IMG/VR virus record: IMGVR_UViG_3300021133_000001
Location: 1-64,000 of that record
DNA length: 64,000 nt
DNA from: a virus
Taxonomy: Duplodnaviria > Caudoviricetes
Strand: one strand, 5' to 3'
Shown here: positions 1-53,441 of the stretch, in pieces
Layout of the letters: each line of letters starts with the position of its first letter
How positions within the stretch are numbered: position 1 is the first letter of the stretch
Translations under genes and position numbers: made by a program
Notes under the pieces: model-generated
The model's database searches: none
Told to the model about the DNA's origin: nothing
What the model saw: only the letters and a program-made list of their open reading frames with translations

Positions 1-82
1 TTTTAACCTCTCCAATATAACCTTCTTCTATTTCTTTAACTAAATCTACTTTTTTATTAACTAAATCTATTTTTATTATCAT
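1..82 (-). CDS. Partial small protein, C-free coding strand (MIIKIDLVNKKVDLVKEIEEGYIGEVK...), runs off the window edge
   Basis: Translated by hand; ATG at 82 preceded by AAAGGAG Shine-Dalgarno; no stop before position 1. Confidence 0.7.
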   Translation of the reverse strand, partial: MIIKIDLVNKKVDLVKEIEEGYIGEVK

Positions 83-103
83 AATATTACTCCTTTATTA
101 TTT

Positions 104-271
104 TTAATCTAAATAACTACCTAATAATTCATCTACATCTTCTTTATTATCTAAACTCCATAATTTATCTAACCCATTTAACCCAAAATCTTCTTCATAA
201 TTCTCTAATATTTCTTTACTATAACTACTCTCTACATAATCTCTTACATTAAATACTTCTTTATTTTTCAT
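104..271 (-). CDS. 55-aa acidic protein, C-free coding strand (MKNKEVFNVRDYVESSYSKEILENYEEDFGLNGLDKLWSLDNKEDVDELLGSYLD)
   Basis: Translated by hand; own promoter; paralog at 3235-3384. Confidence 0.85.
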   Translation of the reverse strand: MKNKEVFNVRDYVESSYSKEILENYEEDFGLNGLDKLWSLDNKEDVDELLGSYLD

Positions 272-277
272 AATATT

Positions 278-306
278 AATATACTAACTTTTTATTATTT
301 AATCAA
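278..306 (-). promoter_or_regulatory. sigma70-like promoter TTGATT-N17-TATATT, 6 nt before ATG (leaderless)
   Basis: Read directly; near-identical copy at 475-503. Confidence 0.75.
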
Positions 307-324
307 CACTAAAATTAAATTATT

Positions 325-468
325 TTAACCTTTTAACTCTATAAAAATACCATCTTTATTAACACCTATAATATTAAACTCATAATTAAAATCATAAATC
401 TTAATATTTTTTCTACCTTTTTTCTCAACTTCTTCTAATAATTCTATTAATTCTCTAATTTTTTGCAT
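325..468 (-). CDS. 47-aa protein with a single C in its coding strand (MQKIRELIELLEEVEKKGRKNIKIYDFNYEFNIIGVNKDGIFIELKG)
   Basis: Translated by hand; promoter directly upstream. Confidence 0.75.
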   Translation of the reverse strand: MQKIRELIELLEEVEKKGRKNIKIYDFNYEFNIIGVNKDGIFIELKG

Positions 469-474
469 ATTATT

Positions 475-503
475 AATATATCTACTTTTATTATTTTAAT
501 CAA
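475..503 (-). promoter_or_regulatory. sigma70-like promoter TTGATT-N17-TATATT, 6 nt before ATG
   Basis: Read directly. Confidence 0.75.
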
Positions 504-511
504 CTATATTA

Positions 512-658
512 TTATAAATCTAATATTAAATCTTTTAAATTATAAATAAAATTCTCATAACTACCTTCATCTTCTACACTCATTTCACCTTTCTCCATTT
601 TATCTTTTAACTCAAATAATAACTCTTCTATTAATTTTATTTTATCTTTATTATTCAT
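512..658 (-). CDS. 48-aa acidic helical protein, C-free (MNNKDKIKLIEELLFELKDKMEKGEMSVEDEGSYENFIYNLKDLILDL)
   Basis: Translated by hand; fills the gap between promoter units. Confidence 0.75.
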   Translation of the reverse strand: MNNKDKIKLIEELLFELKDKMEKGEMSVEDEGSYENFIYNLKDLILDL

Positions 659-840
659 TTTATTTTTATATTTTATTATTATATTATTAAATAATAATAT
701 TATTATATTTTTATAATATATTTTTTTTATTAATATTTTTATAAGAGTTTTAATAATATTTTTTATTTAATTTATAATATTAATATATATATTTTATTAT
801 AAAGTACAAGTTAAAAATAATATTATTTTAATCCTTTTTA
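657..840. other. Extremely A/T-rich tract (657-744 contains only A and T)
   Basis: Base composition read directly. Confidence 0.9.
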
Positions 841-844
841 GCTT

Positions 845-1010
845 GCCTATTAATAAGGGAGCCGTTAACCTAAGCGTATAAACACACGAGGACCCGAGCA
901 ACGTAGTGTTGAACACGTACCCGGGTCCTGTGATGATAAAACCGGCGGTTGAAAAATAAAGAAAGACCGCGCGGGAAATTGGTAGCCGATTTATTAAGCG
1001 ATCGGCTAAA
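845..1010. ncRNA. Candidate structured RNA or cis element with several hairpins
   Basis: Inverted repeats AGGACCCG/CGGGTCCT, GTGTT/AACAC, GCGGT/ACCGC, TAGCCGAT/ATCGGCTA in a GC-rich island. Confidence 0.4.
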
Positions 1011-1021
1011 CGCTATACTAG

Positions 1022-1291
1022 TTAGGCTTTAGTATTACGACGGCCTTCACGGCTGACGTAGTTCTTTTGTAGAGCCTCTAATGATCCGTGCTTTGCAATA
1101 ACCTTGTCAATGTAGCTAGCGGATGTGTACTTTACTGACTTACCGGTAACCTTACAAGTAAGGACTAATGGTAATGTATAGCCACGGGTAGCAGCTTTCT
1201 CATCACGCTTTGTAGCGATAGTAGCTGAACGCTTAGCCTTTGCTTCGGCTGTTTGTGTTGCACTGATGTTTGTATTAGTATCTGTATTCAT
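1022..1291 (-). CDS. Small basic hypothetical protein, paralog of 61639-61908
   Basis: Shared RGxxLPLxLxCxVT..KYTSxxYIxKxIAKHGSxE..KNYVSxEG. Confidence 0.85.
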   Translation of the reverse strand: MNTDTNTNISATQTAEAKAKRSATIATKRDEKAATRGYTLPLVLTCKVTGKSVKYTSASYIDKVIAKHGSLEALQKNYVSREGRRNTKA

Positions 1292-1397
1292 TTTATTATT
1301 TTAGTTTTAGTTTTTTTTAGGTTTAAGTTTTATTAACTTATAAGATCTATTATGGATTAAGTTCCGATTTATGCAAGCTTTTTTTCCGATTATTTTA

Positions 1398-1610
1398 TCA
1401 AACACCGGGTGTTTGAATCTTAACGGGGGTTTGAATACCCGTAGGAATCACTTCTGCCTTTAGCTCTGCTTCGTTGATTAACTGCTTCATAAAGGTCTTA
1501 AATGCCTCCGGATTGGTTACCTTGAACCCAGGAGTGTTAACGAAGTTTGGTATTGATACCATCGTGCCCTCTAATAGGCCTGATAGTCTTGCGTAGTTAA
1601 TCATTTTCAT
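1398..1610 (-). CDS. Hypothetical protein
   Basis: ORF with promoter TTGCCT-N17-CATTAT upstream. Confidence 0.7.
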   Translation of the reverse strand: MKMINYARLSGLLEGTMVSIPNFVNTPGFKVTNPEAFKTFMKQLINEAELKAEVIPTGIQTPVKIQTPGV

Positions 1611-1647
1611 ATTAGTATAATGGATTAAGTTCCGTTAAAAGGCAAGC

Positions 1648-1836
1648 TTAAATCTTCTGGATTCTAAACAAGCAACCTAATGAGTTAAACTCCTTTTCAA
1701 GCTTATTCATAAGCTTTGTAGCTTGCTCCTTTGTTAACTCTTTCACTTGCTTAGGAGTAATATCACTTGTAGTGTTTAAGTTAAACGCATTCCAGTTATT
1801 GGAATCATGTGTTTTAATTTGTATTGTATAATTCAT
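1648..1836 (-). CDS. Hypothetical protein
   Basis: ORF with promoter TTGCAC-N17-CATTAT upstream. Confidence 0.7.
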   Translation of the reverse strand: MNYTIQIKTHDSNNWNAFNLNTTSDITPKQVKELTKEQATKLMNKLEKEFNSLGCLFRIQKI

Positions 1837-1875
1837 TGTTTAAATATAATGGTAACTTTATTAACAAAGTGCAAT

Positions 1876-1909
1876 AAAAAAGGGATATACCGTTAAGATA
1901 TATCCCTTT
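1876..1909 (-). terminator. Intrinsic terminator
   Basis: AAAGGGATATA/TATATCCCTTT stem plus U-tract after the 1916 stop. Confidence 0.75.
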
Positions 1910-1915
1910 GAAATG

Positions 1916-2209
1916 TTAATCAACCTGAACAATACTGAAGTTAGCTACGAAATAAGAATCAGCAAAGATTGCATTATTTCTATCACTCTCTCCTAAATCC
2001 AACTCAGTGTAGAAGTACTCATCACTATCTTTATCTAAAGCTTGTTTAATCTCATTTGGACCCCAAAGAGCTAACTTACCACAAGCTTTGATGATATTAG
2101 ATCTACTCCACGAAGGTATTTGTACCTCACATGTATTAGAACCAGCTAATGAAGCGTGTTCCCCTACTAATGAATCATCTCTATACACATATTGAATATG
2201 AATTTTCAT
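1916..2209 (-). CDS. Hypothetical protein
   Basis: ORF; promoter TTGACT-N17-CATAAT near 2256-2284. Confidence 0.75.
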   Translation of the reverse strand: MKIHIQYVYRDDSLVGEHASLAGSNTCEVQIPSWSRSNIIKACGKLALWGPNEIKQALDKDSDEYFYTELDLGESDRNNAIFADSYFVANFSIVQVD

Positions 2210-2530
2210 AGAACATTATAATAATGAAACGTGATTGTTTCTTTATTATCTATACATTATGGGTACTTTATTGAATAAAGTCAATTCAAAAAAATCCCTT
2301 TTTGAAGCTTTTTAGCTTGACTTCAACAGGAACTTAAACTACAATATTATTATAAGGGGGGGTTATGGACATAGCTAGAAGGAGATATATAATCCTTTGA
2401 TCAATCCAACAGTAGTGATATCTCCCTTGAATGATATAGATTTTGAAATATAACCCGATAAAACTGGATATAATGGGAGCAAACTTTAAGCTTGCACTTA
2501 AGTTTAATGTACGCTATACTATATAGTTAA

Positions 2531-2689
2531 ATGAGAGACTCTACTTATATAAACTTTTTGGCAAGGCTAAAAACCCGGTTCACACCCTTTATTGGCAAGG
2601 TTTGGGTATACGCCGAGGTAACAGCGACATTACTCTACACCGTATTGATCGGGTACGTTGTGTACCTAGCCTATAAAGCACCGAGATGA
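2531..2689 (+). CDS. 52-aa single-pass membrane protein (MRDSTYINFLARLKTRFTPFIGKVWVYAEVTATLLYTVLIGYVVYLAYKAPR)
   Basis: Translated by hand; promoter TTGCAC-N17-TATACT at 2492-2520; hydrophobic C-terminal half. Confidence 0.6.
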   Translation: MRDSTYINFLARLKTRFTPFIGKVWVYAEVTATLLYTVLIGYVVYLAYKAPR

Positions 2690-2875
2690 TCTATAAGGTC
2701 TATAGAACCTATATCACTCTAGGTAGACACGGTGCTATTACACGTAGAGAGAGCAGACGCACCCAGTACTCCAGTACACGGCCCTTGCTAATAAACCTGG
2801 TCACGCTGAGTCGACTAGGTCTAATAGGCCGACTGGGGTGTTTGGAATGACGGGGTTACTATAGATAACTAGGGA

Positions 2876-2899
2876 TTTGAATCCCCCCGGGGGTTTGAA
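2876..2899 (+). repeat. TTTGAA-N12-TTTGAA direct-repeat pair; also at 1412-1435 and inverted at 3196-3219
   Basis: Three copies with identical 18-bp period and G/C-run flanks. Confidence 0.7.
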
Positions 2900-2990
2900 T
2901 CTGCACGTACTGGGATTTTTGCGCAAAAAAAATTGCGAAAAAAATTGGATTGGGACTAAGTGTAATACGGATTTATTTACCAGCTACTAC

Positions 2991-3161
2991 TTATTTTATA
3001 TCCGTCTTCTTCTTATCCTCTTTCAGGCGTGCTAGTAGCTCGTCCGTACGTTTATGTTCCTCCTCTAGGTACTTGACGATGTCCTTTACTTGCCATCTTC
3101 TACCGCGAAAGTCGCAGTAATGTTCTTGTGGTAGTTTCTTATAGTCTTCTAAGGTTACCAT
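2991..3161 (-). CDS. Hypothetical protein (start revised to MVTLEDY)
   Basis: TAAGTA late-type motif just upstream of ATG 3161. Confidence 0.65.
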   Translation of the reverse strand: MVTLEDYKKLPQEHYCDFRGRRWQVKDIVKYLEEEHKRTDELLARLKEDKKKTDIK

Positions 3162-3234
3162 ATAGTAGTACTTACTTACACCCGACTGCTGGGTGTTCAA
3201 ATCCCCACGGGGGTTCAAATCCCTGCATGGGGAG

Positions 3235-3384
3235 TTAGTACTTGGCTAATACATCATCTACTTCATCTTGTGTTAAGCTATATAGATATAATGTAGATTC
3301 TATACCGTATTCTTCTACGAACATATCTACTATCTCTTCACCGTAGTTATCTAGTATATATTGTTTACAGTTAAAGGTACTCAT
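3235..3384 (-). CDS. 49-aa acidic protein (MSTFNCKQYILDNYGEEIVDMFVEEYGIESTLYLYSLTQDEVDDVLAKY), normal-composition paralog of 104-271
   Basis: Translated by hand; aligns over its full length with 104-271. Confidence 0.8.
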   Translation of the reverse strand: MSTFNCKQYILDNYGEEIVDMFVEEYGIESTLYLYSLTQDEVDDVLAKY

Positions 3385-3387
3385 ATA

Positions 3388-3660
3388 TTAATCGTTATAC
3401 TGTTCTTGTACCTTCTTTAGATCGTTTAGTAGGTTTGCTTTTTCTTCACCTTCTATTACTCTTTCCAATCTTTGAGAACCCCCTACATATAGTCTATCCT
3501 TCCATACCTCTTTCCAGCTTTCTCCTCCGGCAAATATCCTACCCTCCTCTCCATTAAACTCTACTATCTTTCTTACTGGTATTACTCCATTATCCTCAAA
3601 GTAAAACCCGTCGCATATAAACTTACCCTTTAGTATTAACCAATCGTTTCTGATTTCCAT
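3388..3660 (-). CDS. Hypothetical protein
   Basis: ORF track; purine-rich coding strand. Confidence 0.7.
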   Translation of the reverse strand: MEIRNDWLILKGKFICDGFYFEDNGVIPVRKIVEFNGEEGRIFAGGESWKEVWKDRLYVGGSQRLERVIEGEEKANLLNDLKKVQEQYND

Positions 3661-3759
3661 ATTATATTCCCTTTTCTAGTTTAGTGTTTAGTATTTGTAT
3701 TGAATTTTTATATGTCATACAGTGATTATACTACGTACCTTATCGGTTTAGTGCAAGCT

Positions 3760-6234: not shown

Positions 6235-6275
6235 AGAGTACAATAGTAGTACCTCTATGTTATTAAGTCAAGCTT

Positions 6276-7381: not shown

Positions 7382-7692
7382 TTAAATTCCTTTCTATCAT
7401 CCATTTCTGGTTTGTTCTTTTCTGTCCACATCATACACATTATGTTCCATACAGCAGCTGCAGCATGGTCTTCGTTATTCTCTCCCTGCCAATACTTCAT
7501 TAAATGTCTCTGTGCACTATCATAATAGACAGAAGTGTTCATACCTTTCTTCCAATTGTTAAAGCCATACTTCTGACCACCTGATACAAAGTGACTAGCC
7601 ACTCTCATTAACTCTTCATGAGGTACTAAGCTTAGTCTTGGTTTACCAACATCTGTATCTCTTTGTGCGCCTGTATCAAATTGTCTTTTCAT
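7378..7692 (-). CDS. dATP/dGTP diphosphohydrolase-domain (DUF5664-like) protein
   Basis: GAQRD.D.GKPR..L.P...GxxKYGxxNWxKG...YDSAxRHL...EDH.AA..WN. Confidence 0.85.
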   Translation of the reverse strand: MKRQFDTGAQRDTDVGKPRLSLVPHEELMRVASHFVSGGQKYGFNNWKKGMNTSVYYDSAQRHLMKYWQGENNEDHAAAAVWNIMCMMWTEKNKPEMDDRKEFK

Positions 7693-8681: not shown

Positions 8682-9410
8682 TTAAGAATAATAATAGTCC
8701 CAGTCGTGATTATGAAATAAAGTTTCAGGTATAATAGGATCCCATTTTCCTTTTACAAGAGCTTCTTTTATGTGCTGTGCTACTAATACGTTTATTTCTT
8801 CTGTAAGATGGCAGTAAACATTTTCCTCTGCATTACATTTTATATAACCATCTTTTTTAAATGTTTCTAAATAATCCGGTTTCAAACTCCTTACAGCAAG
8901 TTCTTGATAATTTCTAAACATTGCACCACCTTGATTTAATGCAGGAAGCACAGAAATTAATATACAATCAGGTCGTATTTCTTTTATTTCCTTTAACATT
9001 AATCTGCATATATCTTTATACACAATATCACTATAAATATGAGTATAATAATATTCAAGAGCTTGTAGTTTAAGTAAAGCTTCATCTGATAACCATTGCT
9101 TATTAACATTTTTAAATTGCTCTACTGTAGTGGTAGAATTCATACCATACAGCAAACCATTGTACTCTATCATATTATTAAGACAACGGCCATGATCTGT
9201 TGCAACAAAGACGACTTTATCAAACTTAGAATGCGTATCTAAAAATTTACGATAACTATAATGCACATCACTGCCTGGTAAGCCATAATTAGTTACGTTA
9301 AAATCTTTTTTTAAATGATATGACCATTCTTTTTCAGATAATAACCTTTCTTTACCATCGTGCTTCCAATCCTTAGCAAAGGAATCTCCGTATATGCCTA
9401 ATGTTTCCAT
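8682..9410 (-). CDS. SGNH-like hydrolase/acyltransferase
   Basis: YGDSF, NYGLPGS, C-terminal His. Confidence 0.7.
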   Translation of the reverse strand: METLGIYGDSFAKDWKHDGKERLLSEKEWSYHLKKDFNVTNYGLPGSDVHYSYRKFLDTHSKFDKVVFVATDHGRCLNNMIEYNGLLYGMNSTTTVEQFKNVNKQWLSDEALLKLQALEYYYTHIYSDIVYKDICRLMLKEIKEIRPDCILISVLPALNQGGAMFRNYQELAVRSLKPDYLETFKKDGYIKCNAEENVYCHLTEEINVLVAQHIKEALVKGKWDPIIPETLFHNHDWDYYYS

Positions 9411-9417
9411 ATTAATA

Positions 9418-10053
9418 TTAAGGGTTACAACCTCGATAAGCCACTACATCGAGATACTCTCCTTGGCTTATCGTATGACCAGTTGTACTATAACCCGCTT
9501 TAATTAACAAGGGTACTGCAGTACCTCCTTTACCTTCCCAGTTGATATCTGGTCTGTTATAAAAGTTTTTAAAAGTATCATCGTATATAAATATGCTCTG
9601 CTCTTGCATATAAGGTAAACAGTATTGGGTTTGTAGTTTATGCTCGAGTTTGCAGTTATCGTTATTAAGGGTAACACCCTGTGCTGCGTACTCTTGTATG
9701 AGTTGTTGTGTGGGTATATCTGGTTTACCATTTACGTATGAACAAGGCCAAATTATATCAAAGTTATCCAAATATAGTACTTTAATCTTTTTATTTAGAG
9801 TAGGTAATACATTTCTACACCAGTTTGATCCGCTATCAACCACTCTATAGTCTATTAAAGCAGGATTGTATGAACTAGCTGCACTTGTAACATCAATAGA
9901 AATAAATTTAAGACCTCGCTCTAAAGCCCAGTTATGTAGAAACACACTTGACCCATCACCTCGTTCACTACCTATCTCCAATACAATATCTTCGTTAGTA
10001 AACGTAAGATCTTTAAACTTTTCTTCTAATATAAGATATGGCTTAGTACCCAT
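9418..10053 (-). CDS. Class I SAM-dependent methyltransferase-like protein
   Basis: VLEIGSERGDGS, SIDV, LYLDNFD, YDDT, GKG. Confidence 0.7.
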   Translation of the reverse strand: MGTKPYLILEEKFKDLTFTNEDIVLEIGSERGDGSSVFLHNWALERGLKFISIDVTSAASSYNPALIDYRVVDSGSNWCRNVLPTLNKKIKVLYLDNFDIIWPCSYVNGKPDIPTQQLIQEYAAQGVTLNNDNCKLEHKLQTQYCLPYMQEQSIFIYDDTFKNFYNRPDINWEGKGGTAVPLLIKAGYSTTGHTISQGEYLDVVAYRGCNP

Positions 10054-10780
10054 CTCCGTAGTAATGTTCCCAATTGTACTTATGTGGTAAGGTTTGAGGT
10101 ATAGTTACTTCTTTCTTCAGTAACATTTGTTCCATATGTTCAGCTACAAGCACATTAACCTCTTCAGTAAAGTGGCATACTATATTCTTTTCTACATAAG
10201 GTATAAAATTGTTTGCTTTAAATTTATCTAACAAATCAAGCTTTAAGCTGCGCACCATTAACTCCTGATAGTCTTGCATGAGTAAGCTTGGTAGAGTGTT
10301 TCTAGTACTTTCAGTCTCTTCTTTATGTACACAAATAAATACTGTATTAGACTTTATACTTAAAAGCTTTTCTATCATAAGAGTGTGCATATCTAAATCA
10401 ATAGAATAATCACTTAAATGTGCATAATAATATTTTAAATACTCTAAATGATACTCCAACTCTACATCGATATTTTTTTTACTTTTAAGAAAAGCCTCAA
10501 CTGTTGAAAGATTATTAAACCCGTACAAGTTACCTTTATGTTCAAATACATTTTTAGGAGCCCTACCACAAGGTGTAACTATAAAAATACATTTGTCATG
10601 CTTATTATAGGTGTTAAGATAGTTTTTATAACTATAGTACAAACTACTACCACCAACTCCATAATTGGTTACATTATAAGAACGTTTAAGTAAATTAGGC
10701 CATCCCTTTGCAGCCATTTCAGCAGTATACTGACTACCTATACCTACAAAAGAAGCTCCATATATGCCTAGTGATTCCAT
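10043..10780 (-). CDS. SGNH-like protein, paralog of 8682-9410
   Basis: YGASF, NYGVGGSS, CHFTEEVN. Confidence 0.7.
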   Translation of the reverse strand: MESLGIYGASFVGIGSQYTAEMAAKGWPNLLKRSYNVTNYGVGGSSLYYSYKNYLNTYNKHDKCIFIVTPCGRAPKNVFEHKGNLYGFNNLSTVEAFLKSKKNIDVELEYHLEYLKYYYAHLSDYSIDLDMHTLMIEKLLSIKSNTVFICVHKEETESTRNTLPSLLMQDYQELMVRSLKLDLLDKFKANNFIPYVEKNIVCHFTEEVNVLVAEHMEQMLLKKEVTIPQTLPHKYNWEHYYGDGY

Positions 10781-52811: not shown

Positions 52812-53441
52812 TTATTCTTCTGAAGTCAAAGCTTCTGCTAACGTAAACATTCCTTTAACATGCGTTCTTTCATTAACTAATTCTAACTTAATATATGTAG
52901 GTTGGTTCTTTATTATTGATTCCATTAATTCCCCTGTAATCTCTACTTCATCTAATGTGTAAAAGAGCTTAAATGCGTTTATTGTTTGCTCAATATTGTA
53001 ACGGATACTATCTTCTTCTTGTTTTTGTGCTTCTATCTGCTCTCTAGTTTTATAAGGTACTACTCTCCACTCACTGTAAAAATAAAATTTTATCTCTATA
53101 GGTGCACCTGGTTCAGCGGCACTATCACTAAAACTAAAGGCCTGGCCAGGTTTTATAAACTTCGGTATCATATTTTTTTTTAAACATTTATCAATAAGTT
53201 CTCTAGCTGTTACACCTGGCACAAGGTTAAAACTAGTACCTGAACTACGTTCAATAGCTATAGCACAACAATTTAAATGTTCAACGTTAAGTATGCCTTT
53301 TATACGACTGGCACCGGCATATCTAAAAGATGCTACTGGAGATGTCCTATACTTATTATATGATAGGAACCCTTCGTAGCTAAAGCCTTCTGGGTCATTA
53401 AACTGGTCTTGTAATTCTTTTACGTTAATCGGTTCTTTCAT
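52812..53441 (-). CDS. Hypothetical protein
   Basis: ORF track. Confidence 0.7.
   Translation of the reverse strand: MKEPINVKELQDQFNDPEGFSYEGFLSYNKYRTSPVASFRYAGASRIKGILNVEHLNCCAIAIERSSGTSFNLVPGVTARELIDKCLKKNMIPKFIKPGQAFSFSDSAAEPGAPIEIKFYFYSEWRVVPYKTREQIEAQKQEEDSIRYNIEQTINAFKLFYTLDEVEITGELMESIIKNQPTYIKLELVNERTHVKGMFTLAEALTSEE

Follow-up and report, generated by a model that had tools for sequence, protein, structure and literature searches.

The first 64 kb of the 140,180-bp viral contig IMGVR_UViG_3300021133_000001 (Duplodnaviria; Caudoviricetes), hereafter the window, carry on the minus strand two short open reading frames (ORFs) that are distantly related paralogs and belong to the same family of small, acidic, four-helix phage proteins. 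One of them, cf1, lacks cytosine (C) altogether and lies in a cassette of small genes written without this nucleotide, whereas the other, 3 kb away, has a normal composition. The cassette copy is recoded, with the fold and the conserved motif retained. Our overall reading, to which we assign a probability of roughly 60%, adds to these observations that the C-free rule acts on nucleic acid and that the messages are kept without C so that an agent acting at C cannot stop their expression. The two ORFs are as follows.

104-271, minus strand: cf1, 55 amino acids (aa), C-free member of the small four-helix family (0 C in 168 nucleotides [nt]; no Ala, His, Pro, Gln, or Thr)
3235-3384, minus strand: paralog of normal composition (49 aa; 18 C in 150 nt), the second of two genes in its operon

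Two distant members of one protein family

The first-pass annotation, made from the sequence alone, had aligned the two ORFs and had named beforehand a shuffle test and a fold comparison as the points on which the alignment might be refuted. The alignment proved significant and the predicted folds agree. BLASTP finds 15 identities over 48 positions (31%), 65% positives, and one gap (pairwise expect value, or E, 1e-8). The Smith-Waterman score of 83 compares with a mean of 25 (standard deviation, 5; maximum, 58) for 2 x 20,000 composition-matched shuffles, none of which reached 83, and the Gumbel p for the alignment is 2-4e-7. A six-frame search of the whole 140-kb genome returned each copy as the sole significant match of the other (E 4.8e-5 and 3.4e-5), and a profile search of the genome recovered exactly two family members, namely, this pair. 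Ortholog sets collected from metagenomes (69 to 98% identity for cf1 and 73 to 96% for the normal copy) matched each other in a profile-profile comparison with a probability of 96.8% (E 2.9e-10). The conserved positions listed in the first pass hold up across 27 sequences of both subfamilies, in which the N-terminal F-N, two Tyr residues, a central Gly, L..SL, V-D, and the C-terminal L..Y are invariant or nearly so. AlphaFold2 models built from separate alignments (predicted local distance difference test scores, 86.5 and 86.4) show four helices at matching positions in both copies, and at least 20 of the top 50 weak Protein Data Bank (PDB) neighbors are common to the two models, over the same chain segments. 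Both proteins are acidic, with isoelectric points of 4.2 for cf1 and 4.1 for the normal copy; the first pass took them for possible immediate-early and later forms of a single acidic inhibitor, an idea that is conjectural.

One might still attribute the similarity to chance, or deny that the C-free ORFs are genes, given that they are short, lie in low-complexity A/T-rich DNA, and match no known family. The shuffle, genome-wide, and profile statistics reject chance, and the ratio of nonsynonymous to synonymous substitution rates (dN/dS) below 1, the 28 homologous clusters, and the two confident and concordant models refute the non-gene reading, to which we give practically no credence. A real protein under purifying selection, as the first pass had supposed for the C-free ORF, is what the median dN/dS of 0.33, the occurrence of the motif in the 28 clusters, and the confident AlphaFold2 models support.

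The pair is not a recent duplicate, since cf1 is nearer to normal-composition members from other phages (29 of 50 and 28 of 53 positions identical) than to the paralog in its own genome (15 of 46). The pair is old, and the cassette copy probably arrived with the cassette. The idea that the two genes form a built-in control thus stands for composition but not for a before-and-after comparison, for which the paralog is too old and divergent.

At E <1e-3, a family profile search gathered the 28 clusters, which comprise proteins of about 50 to 60 aa plus one 478-aa fusion (P0053). Most members are of normal composition and contain Ala, His, Pro, Gln, and Thr. Three further candidates were discarded, i.e., the saposin-repeat protein P0052, a repeat artifact of the profile search; a supposed third paralog at 52911-53054, which is internal to a 209-aa ORF and falls outside the family; and the C-free 51-aa protein of contig L007, whose probability of belonging to the four-helix family is 2.7%. 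Contig L037 carries two normal-composition family copies about 840 nt apart (9159-9305 and 10001-10147; the same in L038), which indicates that duplication of this small family recurs.

The family has no named relatives in the collections searched. Pfam and PHROG hold no match for cf1, the normal copy, gene X (the partner of the normal copy, described below), ten other cassette proteins, or the 478-aa fusion, and for neither copy is there a curated-family match in these two databases to DNA mimics or other small acidic phage inhibitors (Ocr, ArdA, anti-CRISPR). A sequence profile search of the PDB gave nothing below E 0.4, and Foldseek gave nothing below E 2 against the PDB and viral libraries. 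The best VIA-align Z scores of the family models against the PDB were a weak 3.6 to 3.7, the ESM Atlas returned only unnamed viral clusters at template modeling scores of about 0.5, and a feature-based search of a protein atlas yielded no usable match. A role for the family in binding a host protein, as a small acidic partner, is guesswork.

Recoding of the cassette copy

For a gene of 168 nt, the total lack of C in cf1 has a binomial chance of about 1e-13 at the genome mean sense-strand C content of 16.3%. The normal copy uses C freely, as first noted (18 C in 150 nt; third-position C, 18% versus a genome mean of 13%). Among codons ending in a pyrimidine, cf1 has 23 that end in T and none in C, whereas the normal copy has 11 and 7, respectively. 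Five identical residues are encoded by C-containing codons in the normal copy and by C-free synonyms in cf1 (AAC to AAT, TAC to TAT twice, CTA to TTA, and AGC to AGT), and all aligned Thr, Gln, and Ala residues of the normal copy are substituted in cf1. The replacements of these C-obligate residues are varied: Ala gives way to Gly, Lys, Arg, or Ser; Thr to Asn, Ser, Leu, or Glu; and Gln to Lys, Asp, or Glu. At 64 positions where normal homologs have C, the C-free versions have T at 33, A at 17, and G at 13. With T at only about half of the lost-C sites and such a range of residue replacements, simple C-to-T decay is insufficient to account for the pattern.

The C-free state is conserved. Orthologs of cf1 have no C in the gene at 26 of 26 loci (67 to 100% identical), which amount to 11 distinct DNAs, with the copies from this genome included, and the C-free runs containing them reach 2,610 nt. 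C is involved in none of the 36 variable alignment columns of the C-free clade, versus 8 of 26 in the normal clade (Fisher p, about 5e-4). The dN/dS of the normal clade is 0.16, lower than the median of the C-free clade given above; dS reaches up to 0.8 among C-free members, and one pair combines a dN of 0.008 with a dS of 0.80. Across distinct cassettes that add up to about 30 kb, internal Cs are limited to a CAA at codon 2 and two ACT codons; every other C lies 77 nt or more upstream of a first ATG or 8 nt or more past a last stop. A sequencing artifact is excluded as the cause, as the assemblies derive from many samples and three sources. A scan of viral contigs found no C-free copy outside metagenome contigs.

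A two-armed cassette and genes in two states

The 140-kb contig is 44% complete according to CheckV and encodes a T4-like large terminase with 34% identity to cyanomyovirus gp17; contigs of relatives come from freshwater and bog-lake metagenomes. The plus strand of positions 1-803 has G at only 465, 745, and 747, so the ORF-bearing minus strand is nearly devoid of C. Positions 1-2979 of metagenome contig L019 are 100% identical to window positions 2979-1, and L019 extends 3.6 kb beyond the window start. Read on this contig, the cassette consists of two convergent arms with 13 genes in total, each arm being C-free on its own sense strand. Arm A comprises window positions 1-745 plus 360 nt past the contig end (1,120 nt; 1 internal C), with five genes in the order cf3, cf2, cf1, cf0, and an 83-aa gene past the contig end. 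Arm B lies wholly past the contig end on the opposite strand, with eight genes in 2,470 nt and 2 Cs at its edges. The features of arm A within reach of the window are listed below.

1-82, minus strand: 5' part of cf0, the fourth C-free gene (ATG at 82-80; AAGGAG ribosome-binding site at 95-90), which runs off the contig end
L019:2898-3044, overlapping the window: cf0 complete, 48 aa
272-306, minus strand: promoter-like repeat before cf1 (TTGATT at 306-301, 17 nt, TATATT at 283-278, 6 nt to ATG)
325-468, minus strand: cf2, 47 aa, C-free except for the only internal sense-strand C of arm A (465, in the CAA of codon 2)
469-503, minus strand: promoter-like repeat before cf2 (TTGATT at 503-498, 17 nt, TATATT at 480-475, 6 nt to ATG)
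512-658, minus strand: cf3, 48 aa, C-free, first gene of arm A, with normal-composition homologs in relatives
659-806, no strand assigned: DNA of nearly pure A/T preceding arm A (the C-free zone is bounded on its upstream side by sense-strand Cs at 745 and 747)

Each arm begins from an almost pure A/T stretch, and its C-free zone, spacers included, starts some 85 nt ahead of the first ATG and ends with the last stop codon. Past the last stop, Cs reappear after 8 to 13 nt and are plentiful in the 3' region as far as the terminator that the arms share. Between the arms lies a 150-nt spacer of ordinary composition; it holds a bidirectional intrinsic terminator and contains AAGCTT twice and ACGCGT once. 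The cassette proteins lack Ala, His, Pro, Gln, and Thr, and none of the 13 matches a known family in Pfam or PHROG.

Most cassette genes (10 of 13) share an upstream element of about 45 nt, which consists of TTGATT, 17 nt, TATATT, and 6 nt to the ATG, without a ribosome-binding site; the element provides a conserved -35/-10 pair at sigma-70 spacing. In its place, cf0 carries AAGGAG. Because no ribosome-binding site precedes cf1, its message may be leaderless.

Six families, that of cf1 included, are known in both C-free and normal versions, which places the rule in the cassette rather than in the protein. Judged from their sequences, genes are recoded when they sit in C-free cassettes. cf3 is 56% identical (E 9e-16) to a gene at L007:13766-13912 with about 12% C, and the other two-state families include the arm B gene B5, the 51-aa gene of L007, and gene X. 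A well-supported sister pair, P0047 and P0061, is 66% identical (E 3e-24) and of opposite composition states: P0047, with 3 synonymous Cs, is the terminal gene in an 885-nt C-free run, whereas P0061 lies just outside a C-free stretch and is normal. A cassette in an unrelated freshwater phage of higher G+C content (L042:1642-2526) is 30 to 40% G, yet has no C for 885 nt, with a few synonymous Cs in its last gene only; C avoidance is thus not a by-product of A/T richness. On the family tree, which at 54 columns is too short for counting changes, the well-supported branches force one state change only. The proposal that C avoidance belongs to the locus and not to the family is supported by the normal composition of most members, the C-free state of 13 unrelated neighbor genes and their spacers, and the five further two-state families.

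What the C-free rule acts on

The rule acts on the nucleic acid of the cassette and follows the direction of transcription. Since both convergent arms are C-free on their own sense strands, transcription and not one DNA strand as such sets the pattern, and since the spacers are C-free too, the rule does not act on codons. Its end at the last stop, followed by a C-rich 3' region, fits an effect that ceases to be relevant once the coding sequence has been completely synthesized or read. The near-total purge indicates that each C carries a cost. We propose that the cassette holds small and probably early genes, which would be read by host RNA polymerase from one promoter per gene, and that their messages would be kept without C so that something acting at every C cannot block expression.

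A cost attached to every single C fits a chain terminator, a lack of cytidine triphosphate (CTP), or a single-C nuclease better than it fits Rho. The leading candidate, which we hold tentatively, is a stop of RNA synthesis at C, caused by a CTP shortage or by a chain-terminating CTP analogue of the kind made by viperins, whose products are chain terminators (10.1101/2023.09.13.557418). Second, and regarded with somewhat more doubt, is cleavage of the message by endoribonucleases with a C requirement (MazF, ChpB, or MqsR kind). More speculative still is the broader view of the cassette as a CTP-independent expression module, whose 13 genes the host polymerase could transcribe even if CTP were absent or poisoned, whether through a host chain-terminator defense or through a cytosine-based shutoff of host transcription exerted by the phage; phages would then routinely recode genes in and out of it, between a 20-letter and a 15-letter amino acid alphabet. 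Escape from Rho, the third candidate, is unlikely. Rho binds pyrimidine-C (YC) dinucleotides (PMC12360218) and limits T4 early transcripts (PMC2988021), and cassette transcripts, being C-free, have no YC for its primary binding site.

Several points weigh against this proposal or its individual candidates. Polymorphism alone cannot part selection from an extreme C-to-T mutation bias, and the normal paralog, being old and divergent, cannot date the recoding. The terms early and leaderless derive only from the sigma-70-like repeats 6 nt from the ATG, and sigma-70-like matches are common in A/T-rich DNA (62 found versus 42 expected). A CTP analogue would be toxic to the host as well if the cassette is transcribed by the host polymerase, and viperin-type genes are rare. 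For a nuclease, the difficulty is the C-rich stretch after the last stop, where a cut would remove the 3' hairpin. Rho needs several YC dinucleotides, which does not explain a purge to zero, and acts poorly on messages of 200 to 300 nt.

Alternatively, the pattern might be the scar of, or a guard against, C-to-U deamination of the message or of the nontemplate strand in a heavily transcribed region, with Cs erased or else avoided as sites of damage or editing. The pattern is strand specific with respect to transcription, every C would count in such a process, and T stands at 33 of the 64 C sites of normal homologs. The other 30 positions, however, have A or G, and C-obligate residues have turned into a wide range of residues rather than C-to-T products only; moreover, the transcribed region past the last stop is C-rich, and the loss of five amino acids with folds kept needs selection. 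We therefore consider deamination quite unlikely. The target could instead be the template strand, if virion DNA contained a modified guanine that host RNA polymerase cannot read and genes expressed before replication needed a G-free template. This explains the sense-strand rule in both arms and its end after the last stop as well as the message-level idea does, and a MazZ-like dATP/dGTP diphosphohydrolase N-terminal domain (PF18909, E 1.7e-26) is encoded at 7393-7668 on the minus strand. Neither this 140-kb fragment nor a related 140-kb record (44% and 65% complete, respectively) has a queuine-tRNA-ribosyltransferase or DpdA-type gene (PF01702), though, and no PurZ or thymidylate-synthase-type gene is present in this fragment; all other pre-replication genes have ordinary, G-containing templates. 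A modified template is thus improbable in our judgment.

Shutoff of host transcription by a cytosine-acting factor of the phage itself, with the C-free cassette staying expressed, has a precedent in a T4-like setting, as T4 Alc terminates transcription on unmodified dC-DNA (PMC2988021), and the 13 small cassette genes are of the host-takeover type. Outside the cassette, however, the phage genome has C and would be silenced as well, and no Alc-like family was recognized among the cassette proteins, which leaves this alternative with a slim chance. Slimmer yet is that of a DNA-level defense being avoided by keeping G and C on separate strands. A three-letter strand cannot hold a palindromic restriction site containing G or C, and the need for ATG explains why G rather than C was retained. 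Against this, the spacer between the arms is not free of sites, with its two AAGCTT and one ACGCGT; the T4-like terminase implies headful packaging and hence no fixed leading end to protect; the cassette of a relative is internal to a 140-kb contig; and the C-free rule ends exactly at the last stop codon. A message kept free of C against an agent acting at this base remains our preferred reading.

The normal paralog operon and neighboring features

The normal copy is the second gene of an operon with gene X, for which, as for its surroundings, the following features were recorded.

3189-3232, minus strand: two GC-stem hairpins with ATTTGAA loops and no T-run, directly downstream of the normal paralog (folding z, -2.5)
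3388-3660, minus strand: gene X, 90 aa, with its stop codon 3 nt before the ATG of the paralog
3728-3759, minus strand: second-class promoter-like motif upstream of the operon of X and the paralog (AAGCTTGCAC, 17 nt, TAGTAT)
L004:2713-2898, L018:943-1128, L026:2658-2855, L025:10215-10412, and L023:2757-2572: C-free homologs of gene X

Translational coupling links gene X to the normal paralog. In the cassettes of relatives, C-free homologs of X (62 aa, 50% identical, E 4e-14) adjoin cf1 orthologs or lie near them, so that a two-gene module of X and a family member seems, from this arrangement, to exist in both versions. C-obligate residues are scarce in gene X (6.7%; z, -2.6) and its third-position C is normal, as if the gene had left a cassette long ago.

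Hairpin repeats like those downstream of the paralog are clustered at window positions 1397-1445, 2835-2915, and 3189-3232 and at L019:3391-3440, in the spacer between the arms. They have GGG/CCC stems around an ATTTGAA loop, resemble the T-arm of tRNA, and are confined to this early region and the spacer. Searches for Rfam families and tRNAs found nothing that covers the repeats or the spacer. The spacer hairpins are flanked by a near-consensus promoter (TTGCCA, 17 nt, TATAAT) on one side and the terminator on the other and, given this placement, may constitute a small RNA of some 90 nt. Positions 840-1020 and 2340-2990, which fall between the cassette and the normal operon, are G+C-rich (40 to 49%) and have no convincing ORFs; they may encode RNAs or regulatory elements.

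The second-class motif recurs at 6274, 34286, and 63984 on the minus strand and at 2314 and 2489 on the plus strand. It reads AAGCTTG(A/C)C, with AGGTAC and a TAnTAT box about 12 nt further on, and is distinct from the TTGATT class of the cassette. At 3728-3759, it fails a simple sigma-70 scan and serves as a lead only. The PF18909 domain also occurs in relatives L009, L010, and L015, beside a carbamoyltransferase.

Significance and comparison with known systems

If a phage keeps a gene set without one nucleotide, something in the infected cell acts there with single-base resolution. Such an agent, if real, would add a layer not yet described to the conflict between phage and host, or put a known layer to a use not yet described. 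The two-state pairs provide the same protein with and without C, which makes the cause open to experiment. They are also natural examples of one fold written in 15 amino acids and bear on reduced-alphabet protein design. For annotation, C-free genes are easily overlooked as low-complexity A/T-rich DNA.

Our literature search found no published account of natural cytosine-free phage genes or cassettes, although several known systems share one trait or another with this one. Restriction-site avoidance in phages likewise reflects selection that purges short targets from phage DNA, but it is strand symmetric and genome-wide, whereas the C-free rule is strand specific and local, follows transcription, and leaves palindromes in the spacer. 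Synthetic G-less and C-less cassettes used in vitro can also be transcribed without one nucleoside triphosphate, with synthesis halting at the first such base; they are noncoding laboratory tools, while this cassette is natural, protein coding, and under purifying selection. A parallel to a message-level explanation is the engineered MazF single protein production system, in which a message is made immune by writing it synonymously without the target letters (ACA). Here, a whole nucleotide and not a triplet is missing, and five amino acids are given up; the system is natural, spans 13 genes plus spacers, and is kept in more than 20 independent assemblies, a nuclease being only a candidate for its cause.

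To our knowledge, no host-takeover array of the T4 or SPO1 type has been reported to lack a nucleotide. The likeness to the T4 early regions and the SPO1 terminal module lies in their many genes of 50 to 100 aa, each behind a strong host-type promoter of its own (T4 early promoters, PMC2988021). Alc and hydroxymethylcytosine of T4 offer another parallel, in that transcription depends on the cytosine status of DNA in a T4-type phage, Alc acting specifically to terminate transcription on unmodified dC-DNA (PMC2988021). In T4 every cytosine is modified, whereas here C is absent from one strand of a single cassette and no Alc homolog was found. What the present case contributes is the control contained within one genome, together with five further families known in both states.

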